Of a stretch of 29,315 nucleotides of DNA, positions 1 to 6,143 are shown in pieces; the first letter of the stretch is position 1; every line of letters begins with the position of its first letter. The DNA is taken from the UHGV virus genome UHGV-0059448; one strand, given 5' to 3'. Source of the stretch: a virus. A program made the position numbers and the translations under genes. The notes under the pieces were generated by a model that was given only the letters and a program-made list of their open reading frames with translations, did not search any database and was not told the DNA's origin.

Positions 1-201
1 TTATACAGAGTTGAGAGCCCTACTCCATACGTTTTTGATACGCTTTGTCGTGATCCACCGGTTGGCCTCATCGGGTGACATGTCGTGGTTAAGCGCGGCG
101 AGGTTGCGCACGAATGCGCTGGTCCGGACTATCTTGCGGCCAGACGGCTCGCGGGTGATCGACCTGTTGAAAGCTGAGATTTTATCGTCGTAACGCGGCA
201 T
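1..201 (-). CDS. small basic protein (66 aa) immediately downstream of a LexA box; function unknown, candidate SOS-induced regulator
   Basis: ATG at 201..199 with AGGGAGG Shine-Dalgarno about 5 nt upstream; 66 codons to TAA at 3..1. The ORF-track entry 1..264 begins at a TTG; the ATG with the strong SD is preferred. Arg/Lys-rich product not recognised as any named family. Confidence 0.6.
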   Translation of the reverse strand: MPRYDDKISAFNRSITREPSGRKIVRTSAFVRNLAALNHDMSPDEANRWITTKRIKNVWSRALNSV

Positions 202-221
202 GACTCCCTCCCTAAAATCTA

Positions 222-241
222 TACTGTGTATGCATACAGTA
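222..241. promoter_or_regulatory. LexA (SOS) box-like operator
   Basis: TACTGTGTATGCATACAGTA fits the LexA consensus TACTGT-N8-ACAGTA (CTGT at 224..227, ACAG at 236..239); lies in the 108-bp gap between stf stop and the start of the 1..201 gene, about 30 bp upstream of its ATG. Confidence 0.55.
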
Positions 242-309
242 TTTTTAATTCGAAGGGAGATCAATACTGGTTATAACTATCAATCACCAGAACAGGGATT
301 ATTCGCGCA

Positions 310-1578
310 TCAGCTCGGGCTACTGTCAGCACCACCACCTTGTTGTGCGGCTTTCAGTTTCTGGTTGAACACCGAACTTTCTGGCATTTCGAGACGCAGG
401 TCTATCCATCGCCCGGCGGGAATATCCATCGGCTCACCTGCGACGATCATAGCGGTTTCACTGTCAAAGCGACGTTTAAAAACCGACACGATAATGGTTC
501 CGCCCTGAGTGGATTGCGTCTCCACAAAACACAGGGGGTTGCCATTTGAATCCTGTGGGATTTCAATAGTCCAGCCGTCAGCGTGTAGCCCGACAGCGCC
601 ACGTATTTCATATACGCCAGTAGCAATTTTTTCCGCTGTAACGCCTTCCGCCTCCATATTGGTCGCGGCACAGCCAGAAAGTGAAAAATCTTCGAGAAAA
701 CCAGCAGGCATGCCTCTGTGATCATTGGTAAGTCGCACAACAGGTGAGGCTTTTTTTATAAACCCGTTTGCATCAACAGTGGTTGTCAGATTGTCCAGCA
801 ACAGACGGGTTGTTGAAACCCCCGCAGTGCCGTATCCGGACATTACACGGATGCCCCTGGCAAAATAATGCACGCTCATGAGAAACCACGTATCGTTTGC
901 TCCCACCCATAATGTGGGCGCACTTTGTGGAATTTCATAGAATTCACCCGTCATTGGCAATATGTTCTGTAGGGTTGCAAGACTGAATCCCCTCATTTTT
1001 GCCACGACGTTATCAATCACAGATTCACTGGTCGAATTATATTCGGATACAGGAAATCCTTTTTTCAAACCAAGCCCTTCACGTGCGCTGGCCTGGGTAG
1101 TACCGCCAGTACCGCCCTGCTTTACAGACAATGCTGTGGTCAGCCCTTCCAGACTGGTGATGTCTTTATTTACCCCTTTTTTTGCCATGCTGCCAATGGA
1201 GGGGATGCTCATGCTTACACCGTTGATGGTGACCGTGATCATCTGGTTGGCTGTAGTGCTGGCGAACGCCTCCCATGCCCCAATGTTCTCATCGTACTCG
1301 TTAATGAGCTGGGAAATGCTCTGAGCCAGCCCGTCAACCGAGATATTGTCTGATACCAGAATGCCGTACTTCTTGCCGCTCAGCGCCGGTGATGCAGCAG
1401 GCGTTACCGTCATTGACGTGGCGCTATTCACGGATGAAATCTGAAACAGCTGCACCGGGTTAGACATCACGATAATCGTCTGGCCAGCGCGGACCTGGCT
1501 GGCGGGAGCTGTCCAGTTTGTGCCGGAGCCGGTTGCGGTATTTCCGTTAATAGAGATAGTTCCGGTGCTATAAATCAT
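310..1578 (-). CDS. tail fiber protein (side tail fiber-like)
   Basis: 422-aa ORF, ATG at 1578 with AGGAG 5 nt upstream; Gly/Thr/Ser-rich N-terminus (MIYSTGTISINGNTATGSG...) typical of lambdoid tail fiber proteins; position distal to J as for lambda stf. Confidence 0.7.
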   Translation of the reverse strand: MIYSTGTISINGNTATGSGTNWTAPASQVRAGQTIIVMSNPVQLFQISSVNSATSMTVTPAASPALSGKKYGILVSDNISVDGLAQSISQLINEYDENIGAWEAFASTTANQMITVTINGVSMSIPSIGSMAKKGVNKDITSLEGLTTALSVKQGGTGGTTQASAREGLGLKKGFPVSEYNSTSESVIDNVVAKMRGFSLATLQNILPMTGEFYEIPQSAPTLWVGANDTWFLMSVHYFARGIRVMSGYGTAGVSTTRLLLDNLTTTVDANGFIKKASPVVRLTNDHRGMPAGFLEDFSLSGCAATNMEAEGVTAEKIATGVYEIRGAVGLHADGWTIEIPQDSNGNPLCFVETQSTQGGTIIVSVFKRRFDSETAMIVAGEPMDIPAGRWIDLRLEMPESSVFNQKLKAAQQGGGADSSPS

Positions 1579-2083: not shown

Positions 2084-2317
2084 ATGAAACTCGCTCTAAT
2101 TATGCTGCCATTATGTCTGTCCCTCACTGCATGTGGTAATGGTTTAAATACCGGTAAACCAAATTCCGGTGTCATTCCAAAACCTTTGGATCGAGATGGT
2201 AACGGTTCTTTAATTTATGATACCGAAAACCTTCCAATGACGGGGCAGTGGTGTCACGAGATTGATCACGAATACCGACGAATCGGTAGCCCTTCTAACT
2301 GTGTTATAGACTACTAA
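2084..2317 (+). CDS. small lipoprotein (77 aa), divergently transcribed moron; possible Cor-like superinfection exclusion protein
   Basis: ATG at 2084 with AAAGGAG SD 5 nt upstream; signal peptide MKLALIMLPLCLSLTAC with lipobox LTAC; opposite strand to all flanking tail genes; AT-rich surroundings; hairpin terminator directly after stop. Confidence 0.7.
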   Translation: MKLALIMLPLCLSLTACGNGLNTGKPNSGVIPKPLDRDGNGSLIYDTENLPMTGQWCHEIDHEYRRIGSPSNCVIDY

Positions 2318-2320
2318 ATA

Positions 2321-2350
2321 TTAACCCCTCAAAAGAGGGGTTAATATTTT
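2321..2350. terminator. bidirectional rho-independent terminator between lipoprotein gene and J
   Basis: Perfect 10-bp inverted repeat TTAACCCCTC-AAAA-GAGGGGTTAA followed by TATTTT on the plus strand and by a T-rich run on the minus strand; sits between the convergent stops of the lipoprotein gene (2317) and J (2349). Confidence 0.7.
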
Positions 2351-5300
2351 AACCTGTGAATGAACCAGATCCGTGTGATACTATGATAGTAGGCGAAGAA
2401 ATTGACGCACCACTGTTATTTTGAGCGGACACTTTAATACGCACTGTTACGTTTGGACCTGTTACAACCGCAGAATGCATGATAAGTCTCTCCATGTCTT
2501 GCACGGATGAACCACTCTCATTGCCGTTAATATTGATTAGTCCTGCACCATTACCTTTAACGTTTGCTATAACACAGACGTGTCTTGCGTGCCCAGAACT
2601 GGATGAATCCGTATAAGTTATTACCTTTTCTAAAAGACCGTCACTAGACCGACTAACGTTAGTTCCGGTGTGCATATTTGCAATGTCCCCGATAAAACTT
2701 TGGGCTTCCACAGTCCCTTTGAATTTACCGCTTGTTGCTTGGATCTCACCAGTAAAGCTACCGCCACTAGCATATACTACACCTCTGACGGTCACATTGT
2801 TGAATTCAGCATCTCCAGCTTTATTCAACTTCCAACCAGCAGAACCAGCTGCATAGTTGTTGGACTGGATATAGTTGCCGATTTTGGCGTTCTCAATGGT
2901 GCCGTCCTGGATGAAGCTGGCCCGGATGAATGTCTGCCCGTTCTGGATCACGAACGGCAAAGCTACGCTATTTCCGGCTGCCGTGGTGACGGCGAAGCGG
3001 TCAGCCAGAAAAATTACCTGTGATTGCATGCCGCCAGGTGTATTTTGTACCCCTATGCCCATACCTGCAGCGTAATACTGGCCGTTAGCGGCAACGCCAA
3101 CTTTGATGTTGTACATCGCGTTTAGGTTGCCGTTTACATCTGCCACCGCCTGCGCCGTCTGGTTGATGGCTGCAGTCTGCCCGTTCACTGTCACCGTCAG
3201 AGAGTTAATCTTCGTGGCGGATGCCTGGGTGAAATCAGCCAGTGTCTCCGTCAGGTCGGTCGCGTTCGAAACATTCCCACCCGCAGACGCATCAAGCGTA
3301 ACCAATGCCCGGGCAACCGCCTGGCTGGTATCGGCAATGGTGGTGTCTATCCGGTCAATTTTTGCGACATTGCCGTTATTGGTGGCAGTCTGGGAACGGC
3401 GGGAAGTCACCTGCGCCAGGCTGTTCTGGATCACGGCAATTGATGAGTTTTTGACACCGCCGGTCATGCCGTCCATCGACACAGAAATCTCGTCGATCTT
3501 CACTTCGGCCTGAGCCAGCCCGTCAGCGTTCTCCAGGATGTCTTTCGCCTGCTGCTCGAGTTCGTCGGCATGGTTTTTAATTTCGTCAGCCATGCCAGCA
3601 ATTTTTTCATTGCTGTCCACCGCGTTCTCGATCAGGTCTTTGAACGTATCGGAGTCTTTAATTTCCTCCAGAATCACATCTGTGATATCGGAAACATCGA
3701 TGCTGGCCTGTCCTCGCACCCATTCTGTGTACCCTGATTCGTTGCCGCTGCGGTCCACCAGCTGCGCGCGGTACCAGAAAATCTGCCCAGCCTTAAGGCC
3801 CATCTGCTGATATTTGCGCTGCGGGTAAGGCACATCGGCCAGCAGCATGGCATCGTCTTCAGTACCGGTCAGGCTGTACTGAATTTCCGTCTTCAGCGTG
3901 TCGTCGGTATTCGCCTGGAATCCCCAGTTCAGCTCGATACCGAACACCACGTTTTCAGAGGCGATAAAGCCAACCGGCTTCGGTGGATTGCCCACTTTAC
4001 CCGTCAGCGTTTTCTCTTCTGAATAGCCCCATCCGGATGAAATTTCTGCGGCATTGATTGCGCGCACCCGCACCAGGTAGCGCCCGGCATAAATCCCCGG
4101 GACGTCGAATGACGTGGTGGAGGTGCGCGGCACGTTAACCCAGTTCCCGTCATTGCGACGCCACTGTGCCTCATACGCGATAGCATTTTTCGCCTGGTCC
4201 CAGCTGACGCGCATGGTCTCAACGCTGATATTCTGCTGAACGACAGAAAACGAACTGATCGCGATATTAGCTGGCGGGGACTGATTACCGGGCGGAATTA
4301 CACTTATTGGCCGCTGGTCGATAATGGCACCGGTATCGATACGCGCATATTTATCCGGATCGTGCAAAGCGCCAGCAATCGAATACGTTCCGTCATTATT
4401 ATCCGTAACGCTGATAACGCGATATTGCTGCGCGTAAAGCTCTTCAGACTCGACAATCCACACCGATTCCACTGCAGGTGTTTCGCTGTATGCCGTTGTC
4501 ACAGTGACGGCCCGCCCGTTTACGCTCTGTATCGTCCTGCTCTGCGATGCGCCGGACGGAAGGTTAACCATCAGACGGCTTCCGGGAGCGGCTGGCGAAT
4601 CACGATCAAGCGTGATAACGCGACCGTTAACCGCGCTGATGCGCCCTCCCATCACTTTTCCGGAAAGCAGCTCATCGGCAACCGCGATGATATAACCAGG
4701 CTGTGGGATCTTACCGTCAAGACCAACATCGAACGACACGATGCGATCCTTGTTATTGGTCAGGATACCCCAACGTCCTTTGCGGTTTGCCTCTGACTGC
4801 CGGGTACAACCAATGGCTGTCATTTCGAGCTGATTTGTGCCAAAGCGAGCAACGAGATCCTGCTCAAATACAGGCTCCATCGCATCCGCGTAGGCATTAC
4901 CCGGATCGGACCAGGAAACCAGTGCCGTGGTATAGCGGGTTTTGGTGGTGCTGCCCGAATAGGTAAAGCGCCCATTAACCACGTTTGCACGCGTGTAGCT
5001 GTAATCCACATCGCGGGGCATATCCGCCAGCGCAACGATTTGATCGCCACCCCAGTACGTCATGCCCCGGAATATCGCCGCAAAATCACGTAACACGGTA
5101 TAGGCGTCATTCCTCTCCTGCACGTACACGTTACAGGTATAGCGAGGCTCAGTGCCGCTACCGCCTTTACCATCAGGAACCGGCTGATCGCAATATTGCG
5201 CGACCTGATAAAGCGTCCATTTATCAATATTGGCCGCCGTCAGGCGATTGCCCAGCCCAAAGCGGTCGCTCACCACCAGATCGTAAAAAATCCAGGCTGG

Positions 5301-6143
5301 ATTATCCGTCCACGCCCACTTAAACGCCCCTGTCCATGTGCCGCTGTAGGTGCGGGTCTCCGGGTCATACGTATCCGGCACGCGGATAACGCGCCCGCGC
5401 GGTTCACAGGAAATTTGCGGGATGGAGCCGTTAAACTGGCTTGAGTCGAATTCGATGTACAGCAGCGCGGTATTTGGATAACGCAGTTTGGCGTCAATAA
5501 CCTCTGTGTAGCTCTGCAGCGTCATCGTGTCGCCAATTTTCGCGCTGTTGGCATCCGCCGTAAGCTTACGCAGGCGCACCGTCCATGTACTGCCTGCCTG
5601 CGGTAAGTCGATACGGTGGCTGCGTTCGTAGCCTGACGTGGTTTTCCCGGTGACGCTGGTATTAAGCACGGTCTGCCAGGTACCGCCATCTGTCTGCAGA
5701 TCGATAGCGTAATTAATCGAATAGCCGACCAGATCGCCGTCGTCCTCCTGTTTAAACAGTGATGGCCATTTGAGGCGCAGACGAATGGCTGACAGCTGGG
5801 TGTTGGTAAAGGTATGCGTCCAGGCCGTAGCGCTTGACACTTCGGTGCCCACGCTGATTTCATTTTCTGTGCCGGGGATACCCTGAATATATTTTTGTGC
5901 CTGAGTCCCCGGACGAAATTCCCACGCCACGCCACTGAAGTTTTGCGATCCGTCTGCATTCTCCAGTGGCGTGCCATCGAGATAGATATCCTTCGCCGTC
6001 AACTGCCCTGCAAATTCGCCCTCTCCCAGTGCAACAAGAATTTTGGCTTTCGCTACGGACTGGAGATCGTCTGGTTGTTCAGTCGGGGTGCGTGAACTGG
6101 AGCTGCCGCCCTTGCGGCCTCTAATCGGAGTAGATGTAGCCAT
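2349..6143 (-). CDS. J: tail tip host specificity protein J
   Basis: 1264-aa ORF, ATG at 6143; blocks such as YPNTAL, YCDQPVPDG, GTEPR recalled from lambda J; last gene of tail operon after I. Confidence 0.95.
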   Translation of the reverse strand: MATSTPIRGRKGGSSSSRTPTEQPDDLQSVAKAKILVALGEGEFAGQLTAKDIYLDGTPLENADGSQNFSGVAWEFRPGTQAQKYIQGIPGTENEISVGTEVSSATAWTHTFTNTQLSAIRLRLKWPSLFKQEDDGDLVGYSINYAIDLQTDGGTWQTVLNTSVTGKTTSGYERSHRIDLPQAGSTWTVRLRKLTADANSAKIGDTMTLQSYTEVIDAKLRYPNTALLYIEFDSSQFNGSIPQISCEPRGRVIRVPDTYDPETRTYSGTWTGAFKWAWTDNPAWIFYDLVVSDRFGLGNRLTAANIDKWTLYQVAQYCDQPVPDGKGGSGTEPRYTCNVYVQERNDAYTVLRDFAAIFRGMTYWGGDQIVALADMPRDVDYSYTRANVVNGRFTYSGSTTKTRYTTALVSWSDPGNAYADAMEPVFEQDLVARFGTNQLEMTAIGCTRQSEANRKGRWGILTNNKDRIVSFDVGLDGKIPQPGYIIAVADELLSGKVMGGRISAVNGRVITLDRDSPAAPGSRLMVNLPSGASQSRTIQSVNGRAVTVTTAYSETPAVESVWIVESEELYAQQYRVISVTDNNDGTYSIAGALHDPDKYARIDTGAIIDQRPISVIPPGNQSPPANIAISSFSVVQQNISVETMRVSWDQAKNAIAYEAQWRRNDGNWVNVPRTSTTSFDVPGIYAGRYLVRVRAINAAEISSGWGYSEEKTLTGKVGNPPKPVGFIASENVVFGIELNWGFQANTDDTLKTEIQYSLTGTEDDAMLLADVPYPQRKYQQMGLKAGQIFWYRAQLVDRSGNESGYTEWVRGQASIDVSDITDVILEEIKDSDTFKDLIENAVDSNEKIAGMADEIKNHADELEQQAKDILENADGLAQAEVKIDEISVSMDGMTGGVKNSSIAVIQNSLAQVTSRRSQTATNNGNVAKIDRIDTTIADTSQAVARALVTLDASAGGNVSNATDLTETLADFTQASATKINSLTVTVNGQTAAINQTAQAVADVNGNLNAMYNIKVGVAANGQYYAAGMGIGVQNTPGGMQSQVIFLADRFAVTTAAGNSVALPFVIQNGQTFIRASFIQDGTIENAKIGNYIQSNNYAAGSAGWKLNKAGDAEFNNVTVRGVVYASGGSFTGEIQATSGKFKGTVEAQSFIGDIANMHTGTNVSRSSDGLLEKVITYTDSSSSGHARHVCVIANVKGNGAGLININGNESGSSVQDMERLIMHSAVVTGPNVTVRIKVSAQNNSGASISSPTIIVSHGSGSFTG

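Follow-up and report, generated by a model that had tools for sequence, protein, structure and literature searches.

A predicted LexA-repressed promoter on the truncated first gene of a two-gene SOS cassette at the end of an att80 lambdoid prophage

HumD of phage P1 is encoded under a LexA box, and in the impCAB operon a small (~80 aa) SOS protein is encoded first. Small LexA-controlled genes outside the immunity region have also been described for the antirepressors of Gifsy, coliphage 186 (Tum), and N15 (AntC), and the antirepressor genes of Gifsy are located beside dinI, ~1.3 kb from the replication genes. In this study, we analysed a stretch of viral DNA of 29,315 nucleotides (UHGV-0059448; the whole stretch is called the window hereafter), in which a preliminary description had pointed out a LexA box upstream of a small basic gene and had named antirepressors and DinI-like modulators among LexA-controlled prophage genes at such positions. 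We consider it highly probable that the window carries a LexA-repressed promoter on the truncated first gene of a two-gene SOS cassette, that the rest of the cassette was lost by a deletion of 1,585 bp, and that the intact cassette is HumD-like.

The ORF under this promoter occupies the very end of the window (1–201, minus strand; database protein P0014) with an ATG at 201–199 and a stop codon at 3–1, and its 66 codons encode MPRYDDKISAFNRSITREPSGRKIVRTSAFVRNLAALNHDMSPDEANRWITTKRIKNVWSRALNSV. The tail-fibre gene just upstream (310–1578, minus strand; PF25670, E 2e-39) and J (2349–6143, on the same minus strand as the ORF) adjoin it, and lysozyme, Q, RusA, and NinB are found at the far end of the window. 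Thus, as proposed in the preliminary description, the ORF is located at the tail-fibre end of a lambdoid prophage and outside the immunity region. The lineage of the window is that of an att80 (yciI) lambdoid prophage. Between J and the tail-fibre gene, a 77-aa ORF with a lipoprotein-type signal (MKLALIMLPLCLSLTAC...) and no Pfam match is found on the opposite strand (2084–2317, plus strand); the same interval in KL53, HH107, and HK225 holds the gene for the Cor exclusion lipoprotein, on the other strand.

The LexA operator, or SOS box, is the 20-mer TACTGTGTATGCATACAGTA at 222–241 (not assigned to a strand), which fits the CTGT-N8-ACAG palindrome within a TACTG(TA)5CAGTA-like sequence. It is separated by 20 nt from the ATG at 201, and its centre lies ~31 nt upstream, in agreement with the ~30 bp given earlier. 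A Shine-Dalgarno core GGAGG, as read from the sequence, is placed 5 nt ahead of the ATG (207–211, minus strand), so that both the near-consensus box and the strong ribosome-binding site of the preliminary description are borne out. CTGT-N8-ACAG occurs a single time in the 29.3 kb of the window, at 222–241, and at least once in 28 of 100 shuffled windows. Because so loose a pattern is common by chance, the 20-mer was scored with a symmetrised heterology matrix made from 30 E. coli LexA operators. With an index of 4.9, TACTGTGTATGCATACAGTA ranks 8th of 31 when placed among the training operators; the second-best site in the whole window is far poorer (14.1), and none of 200 shuffled windows held a site that equalled it. 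Published indices, which come from a different matrix than the one used here, span 1.5–13 and include 1.5 for sulA, 4.4 for umuD, and 5.9 for recA among functional SOS genes of Salmonella, and the index of the site at 222–241 falls in the range of functional operators.

The box overlaps a promoter. Its promoter-proximal arm coincides with a −10-like hexamer, TACTGT (236–241, minus strand), and a −35 hexamer, TTGATC (259–264, minus strand), stands 17 nt further upstream. These assignments rest on homologous promoters, for which all small genes with an intact 5′ end were pooled to give 62 distinct upstream regions with the consensus cTTGATCt-N~17-TACTGTaTaTatAtACAGT. CTG-N10-CAG is found 31–41 nt before the start codon in every one of the 62 regions, and TTGATC is found at exactly the spacing of the window in 28 of them and with a 1-nt shift in most others, although the DNA around the box and promoter is otherwise unrelated between lineages. 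The G-rich ribosome-binding site is also present in the homologous loci, and an equivalent box is kept in the isolated phages vB_EhrS_59, phiES15, and HK225. A generic promoter scan passed over the window promoter because only 7 of 12 positions match, and a scan of positions 1–420 revealed no terminator-like site between the tail-fibre gene and the SOS promoter. The operator in the window and its conservation at orthologous positions are clear at the level of the DNA sequence, and they make LexA control of this prophage-end unit very likely; we infer that LexA would bind this operator and repress the unit, presumably by occluding the −10 hexamer and blocking RNA polymerase. The position of the box, which lies at the same distance over the −10 in 62 of 62 loci, lends strong support to the earlier suggestion that such control would not depend on the phage repressor. 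A GATC Dam methylation site is contained in the conserved −35 TTGATC of the window (259–264) and of the 62 homologous promoters, and a second GATC lies within the spacer of many homologous promoters (e.g. CGATCAATA); methylation sensitivity of the SOS promoter is possible.

The 66-codon open frame of the preliminary description is real, but it is a deletion chimera of 50 native and 16 out-of-frame pin codons, as is evident from alignment with intact relatives. Codons 1–50 (52–201, minus strand) are the native N-terminal two-thirds of a small gene of the phrog_3893 family, and residues 1–50 are identical to those of the 79-aa protein in FAM21845 and HH107. In alignment with the FAM21845 and NCTC13148 prophages, the window is identical up to codon 50 and unrelated beyond, and the 79-position phrog_3893 profile matches residues 1–53 of the ORF versus 1–78 of the intact protein, so a homology search does assign the N-terminal residues to a large family that the preliminary description had missed, even though the match is not full-length. 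The remainder comes from the 3′ end of the pin gene for a Pin/Gin-type DNA invertase (1–54, minus strand; 54 of 54 bases identical to HH107 pin), which supplies codons 51–66 and the stop codon. The reading frame of pin (..SRQSVSKTYGVGL..) is one base off that of the ORF, and residues 51–66 are therefore an out-of-frame tail. Window positions 1–64 are 97–98% identical to pinL of phi80, mEpX1, and HK225. DNA searches matched these 64 bases to the 3′ ends of pin-type invertase genes in phi80, mEpX1, mEp237, HK225, and ~115 E. coli genomes, and matched bases 47–330 to another handful of E. coli prophages, among them those of FAM21845 and NCTC13148.

The pI of the chimeric ORF is 11.2, compared with 9.5 for the intact protein and a median of 6.6 for the small-protein family; the foreign 16-residue tail adds a charge of +4, and the high pI comes largely from it, so that the basic character noted previously holds for the ORF as it stands but is in large part an artefact of the tail. 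The complete fold consists of H1, a beta hairpin, H2, H3, and a beta wing, together with the nearly invariant residues F57, D59, and N74 (at least 90% conserved); in the truncated product, helix 3 is incomplete, and the beta wing and all three residues are missing. Without these parts of the fold, the fusion product is most likely non-functional. At least 24 contigs, from many samples, encode exactly this 66-aa protein, and the gene order on them is always J – tail fibre – ORF – yciI – tonB. The chimeric ORF is an inherited allele of the att80 prophage lineage and not an assembly error.

E. coli HH107 carries the undeleted arrangement at the same chromosomal site, in the order yciI – 137 nt – pin (182 aa) – tail-protein fragment – yecD/yecE fragments – 109-aa gene – 79-aa gene – tail fibre – cor – J. 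In HH107, TGATTCACCGGTTG lies within pin and TGATCCACCGGTTG within the small gene, with a separation of 1,585 bp. The window retains a single copy of this 14-bp near-repeat, TGATCCACCGGTTG, at 51–64 (not assigned to a strand), and equals the HH107 small gene sequence from position 51 onward, with 99.0% identity to HH107 over 65–1579. One repeat copy flanked by both HH107 contexts identifies the window lineage, by direct comparison of the two, as the product of a 1,585-bp microhomology deletion between 14-bp near-repeats. A reciprocal inversion was also considered as the origin of the junction and was rejected, as HH107 shows a simple internal deletion. The deletion took away the final 29 codons of the small gene and the UmuD′-like gene in its entirety, together with the captured yecD/yecE fragments, an invertible-segment remnant, and most of pin. 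Thus, the UmuD′-like gene, which follows the small gene in HH107, FAM21845, NCTC13148, and the second copy of KL53, is missing from the window. After the deletion, the SOS promoter aims out of the left end of the window (L107:4202-4900), first at yciI, which lies antisense ~140 nt past the end of the ORF, and next at tonB, which has the same orientation as the promoter. No canonical intrinsic terminator was detected between the ORF and tonB in L107:4202-4900; the sole candidate, in the att region, is a long-looped hairpin with a stem of 7 bp (AGGGCAC/GTGCCCT).

The chromosomal surroundings of related copies give some hints on where the cassette came from. In att80 phages, the interval between the cassette and pin contains pieces of yecD and yecE (L113:3107-3553 in HH107; L004:3107-3565 in phi80), for which the annotation gives pseudogenes of isochorismatase and DUF72. 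They are the bacterial DNA that borders the yecE attachment site, at which FAM21845 carries the same cassette, and the cassette end seems to have been captured with host DNA from a yecE-integrating prophage. E. coli KL53 (NZ_CP030919; L001, L024, L025, L026) contains two lambdoid prophages with near-identical late regions and the same J accession. One, at 1.06–1.11 Mb, reads kch – int ... J – tail fibre – intact cassette – yecE′ – yecD, and the other, at 1.75–1.80 Mb (1.753–1.796), reads yciI – truncated cassette – tail fibre – J ... CI(S24) – int – ′yecE – yecN. This arrangement implies that ~640 kb between the att80 and yecE prophages was inverted, with the terminus roughly in the middle. 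Positions 1–330 of the window are 100% identical to KL53, and the two diverge beyond ~1.6 kb, where the window resembles another locus (L109). Because the window differs from KL53, the inversion, the second intact copy, and the CI-type repressor of KL53 describe the genome of a relative.

The intact unit is a tightly coupled two-gene operon, in which the second gene typically begins one to a few nucleotides past the first. In FAM21845 and NCTC13148, the LexA box, the ribosome-binding site, and the ATG open the 79-aa gene, and the 109-aa gene starts 1 nt after its stop codon. We surveyed 80 loci from different species, retrieved with an alignment of the UmuD′-like protein, along with the loci found earlier, and a simple start rule placed the UmuD′-like gene in 61 of the 80. 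A homologue of the small gene was found 2–48 nt upstream of it in 48 of these 61 loci, and a LexA box with a heterology index below 8 was found before the first gene in 55. Conversely, the UmuD′-like gene directly follows the small gene in 25 of 27 phage records, HK225 being an exception in which pin follows. The cassette is widespread at prophage ends in Enterobacterales and in isolated temperate phages, with hundreds of protein clusters, and the pair occurs in lambdoid, P22-like, and Mu-like prophages, always at the att-proximal end and beside tail-fibre, O-antigen-modification, or integrase genes. In rare cases, the two genes are joined into a read-through fusion (P0295, P0296). At the junction in FAM21845 (L002:5905-5935), the small gene ends with ...AAC GGG GGG CTG TGA, followed by T and then ATG. 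The G-rich stretch made up by the Gly-Gly codons of the conserved C-terminus, NPNGGL, lies 7 nt ahead of the ATG of the UmuD′-like gene and also serves as its ribosome-binding site, a role that may account for part of the conservation of this C-terminus.

The second gene encodes a UmuD′ homologue of 105–130 aa, usually 105–109 aa. When aligned to E. coli UmuD, 46 of 46 sampled members begin at the Cys24/Gly25 cleavage site, with Met replacing Cys24. Ser60 is replaced by Ala in 42 of the 46, followed by a deletion of 12 residues, and Lys97 is replaced by Ala or Gly. Judging from these replacements, the UmuD′-like proteins are born processed and protease-dead. The family is strongly acidic (median pI 4.2), and its predicted fold, with the N-terminus at the cleavage site, is an S24 beta-barrel closest to that of UmuD′. 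The HumD model of NCBIfam gives a hit with E 9e-12, but the score of 45 bits is below the equivalog cut-off of 120. No UmuC-type gene was found within 3 kb of the UmuD′-like gene, except in three loci which are genuine host umuDC operons.

The 79-aa product of the intact first gene is predicted to be a winged-helix protein, and the structural model of the intact protein contains helix 43–53 and strands 57–59 and 69–72. Its family, phrog_3893, comprises 308 clusters at 90% identity. Searches of the small protein against Pfam, NCBIfam, and PADLOC gave no match (E≤1 for Pfam and PADLOC), and the only family found with Pfam and PHROGs was phrog_3893 itself, labelled 'unknown function'; likewise, neither this protein nor the UmuD′-like protein matches PADLOC defence-system models at E≤1. 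DinI (PF06183) gave no Pfam hit at E≤1 and an hhalign probability of 0.07%, and hhalign comparisons with the LexA N-terminal domain, DinI, and the product of the 82-aa gene beside dinI in a KL53 prophage, which is only a presumed Gifsy-type antirepressor, were all negative. These Pfam, PHROGs, and hhalign results bear out the earlier remark that the product cannot be recognised as an antirepressor or a DinI-like modulator. A BFVD fold search with the small protein found only its own family. Some candidate relatives were discarded. Matches to designed beta-trefoil 'Symfoil' PDB entries were treated as a repeat-sequence artefact, as none of the stretches passed alone and the matches disappeared with the family profile. 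The Gifsy-1 genes STM14_3218-3220 were dropped as unrelated immunity-region genes, and a Gifsy-type antirepressor locus was rejected because it lies beside dinI near replication genes and shows no similarity. The small gene is widely mislabelled as 'DNA polymerase V'. One database protein of 1,106 aa (P0350) contains 10 separate stretches that match the small-protein profile, and it may be a tandem-repeat protein or a misassembly.

Other copies of the cassette are altered in various ways. In HK225 (L021:2662-3908), a LexA box lies between dinI and a divergently oriented, complete phrog_3893 gene, whose 99-aa product includes an extension of 20 residues. Pin comes next and there is no UmuD′-like gene, so a viable phage can keep the small gene without its partner. 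An independent truncation to 66 aa is found in another prophage lineage (P0345, L114:2880-3201), right after the same AN.WI codons, with a degraded LexA box (TACTGCCTGCACAACCAGTG) and no UmuD′-like gene; its tail looks like the result of an internal out-of-frame deletion. This protein is listed in 46 index blocks of the collection, and 24 contigs were read. P0015 is a deletion fusion of the cassette. Three independent assemblies of Kosakonia (L015, L016, L017) share one frameshift that splits the small gene, ~240 nt ahead of the UmuD′-like gene; the latter is intact, as is the LexA box. The common decay of the cassette fits a dispensable accessory gene set.

In the most likely scenario, positions 1–264 of the window would hold an intact LexA-repressed sigma-70 promoter and ribosome-binding site that drive the truncated first gene, and the ancestral state would be a two-gene, SOS-inducible accessory cassette made up of the LexA box, the 79-aa gene, and the UmuD′ homologue. 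By analogy with HumD, we infer that the intact cassette would, upon LexA cleavage, supply ready-made UmuD′ to host UmuC and bypass the slow RecA*-dependent processing step. As a result, Pol V-type lesion bypass and mutagenesis could begin at once as SOS and prophage induction start, when the prophage replicates damaged DNA. The winged-helix protein may act as a partner or regulator of the UmuD′-like protein, in view of the 1-nt stop-start spacing, the Shine-Dalgarno-like G-run in the Gly-Gly codons, and the rare read-through fusions. The gene that normally follows the small gene, and that this lineage has lost, encodes a pre-processed UmuD′ homologue, so the unit is best grouped with SOS translesion-synthesis accessories such as P1 HumD and not with antirepressors. 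Even so, the UmuD′-like protein might inhibit rather than activate Pol V.

Indeed, it is conceivable, if somewhat doubtful, that the cassette modulates or dampens the host SOS response instead of promoting translesion synthesis. The protease-dead UmuD′ mimic could titrate UmuD/UmuD′, UmuC, RecA*, or ClpXP, or the winged-helix protein and the S24 domain could together make a non-covalent LexA/CI-like regulator. Such a role would suit a UmuD′-like protein without the catalytic dyad and the 12-residue loop that scores below the HumD cut-off; a winged helix with an S24 domain is the domain architecture of LexA, rare read-through fusions of the pair exist, and the same slot in phi80 and HK225 holds LexA-controlled dinI homologues, which are SOS modulators. 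A bolder version seems unlikely to us: that the pair is an SOS-induced module with no part in lesion bypass, either a non-covalent LexA/CI-like regulator or a decoy that retunes RecA*/UmuD/Pol V or ClpXP during prophage induction, and that in this lineage the orphaned promoter fires antisense through yciI towards tonB.

Two further explanations concern the window itself. The 66-aa chimera might be functional in its own right, for example as an SOS-induced antirepressor or small effector, as the preliminary description would have it, and the intact promoter, operator, ribosome-binding site, and open frame, the spread of the allele over its many contigs, and the known use of small LexA-controlled antirepressors outside the immunity region all speak for it. 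We nevertheless regard it as improbable, because the last 16 residues are out-of-frame pin, the native fold breaks off within helix 3 so that the wing is absent along with the conserved F57, D59, and N74, and no antirepressor family in Pfam or PHROGs is matched. Moreover, Gifsy antirepressor genes adjoin dinI near the replication genes and not the tail end, the intact gene travels with the UmuD′-like gene across lambdoid, P22-like, and Mu-like prophages and not with one repressor type, and other decayed copies (P0345, P0015, and the Kosakonia frameshift) are common. Finally, the palindrome could be a chance LexA-like sequence with no regulatory role, in keeping with the frequency of CTGT-N8-ACAG in shuffled windows. 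This is very improbable, as the 20-mer score was unmatched in all the shuffles scored, and the box stays within the same 31–41 nt of the start codon in all 62 loci and overlaps a conserved promoter, although the flanks are otherwise unrelated.

For the window, the result is mainly a correction: a small basic gene under LexA control, which looked novel, proves to be the stump left by a deletion and should not be annotated as a new effector. At the level of the family, the LexA box over the −10, the 79-aa winged-helix protein, and the catalytically dead UmuD′ homologue form a very consistent unit. If it is true that the pair feeds host UmuC, it would allow a phage to bring about SOS mutagenesis or Weigle-type reactivation without delay, and it would be relevant to the supply of mutations under DNA-damaging antibiotics. 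If the pair modulates SOS instead, it would be a novel means by which a phage controls the damage response of its host.

Among known systems, phi80 (dinL) and HK225 resemble this locus in that the same slot, between the tail fibre and pin/attP, holds a predicted LexA site and a small SOS-related gene; DinI of these phages, however, belongs to another protein family and has a described function, unlike phrog_3893. As with the antirepressors of Gifsy, 186, and N15, a small gene directly under LexA ties a prophage function to SOS, but the small protein has no sequence similarity to Tum, GfoA/GftA, or AntC, and the small gene is linked to a UmuD′-like gene and not to a repressor type. The impCAB, mucAB, and umuDC operons share with the cassette a LexA box before a UmuD-family gene. 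In contrast to them, the small protein of the cassette is not DinI/ImpC-like, no Y-family polymerase gene follows, and the UmuD-like protein needs no processing. The second gene corresponds most directly to P1 HumD, which is likewise phage-borne, with a processed N-terminus (GFPSPA.DY) and no UmuC gene alongside, and the two proteins share 31.6% identity (E 1e-6). The cassette protein differs from HumD in being shorter (usually 105–109 versus 129 aa) and in lacking the Ser/Lys dyad and the 12-residue loop, and the cassette, unlike P1 HumD, is located at the att-proximal end of integrating prophages. In addition, a winged-helix gene precedes the UmuD′-like gene of the cassette but not that of P1, which gave no match in the search of phage records. 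SOS-regulated orphan UmuD′ homologues of phages are thus already known, and the winged-helix partner is the element added here.
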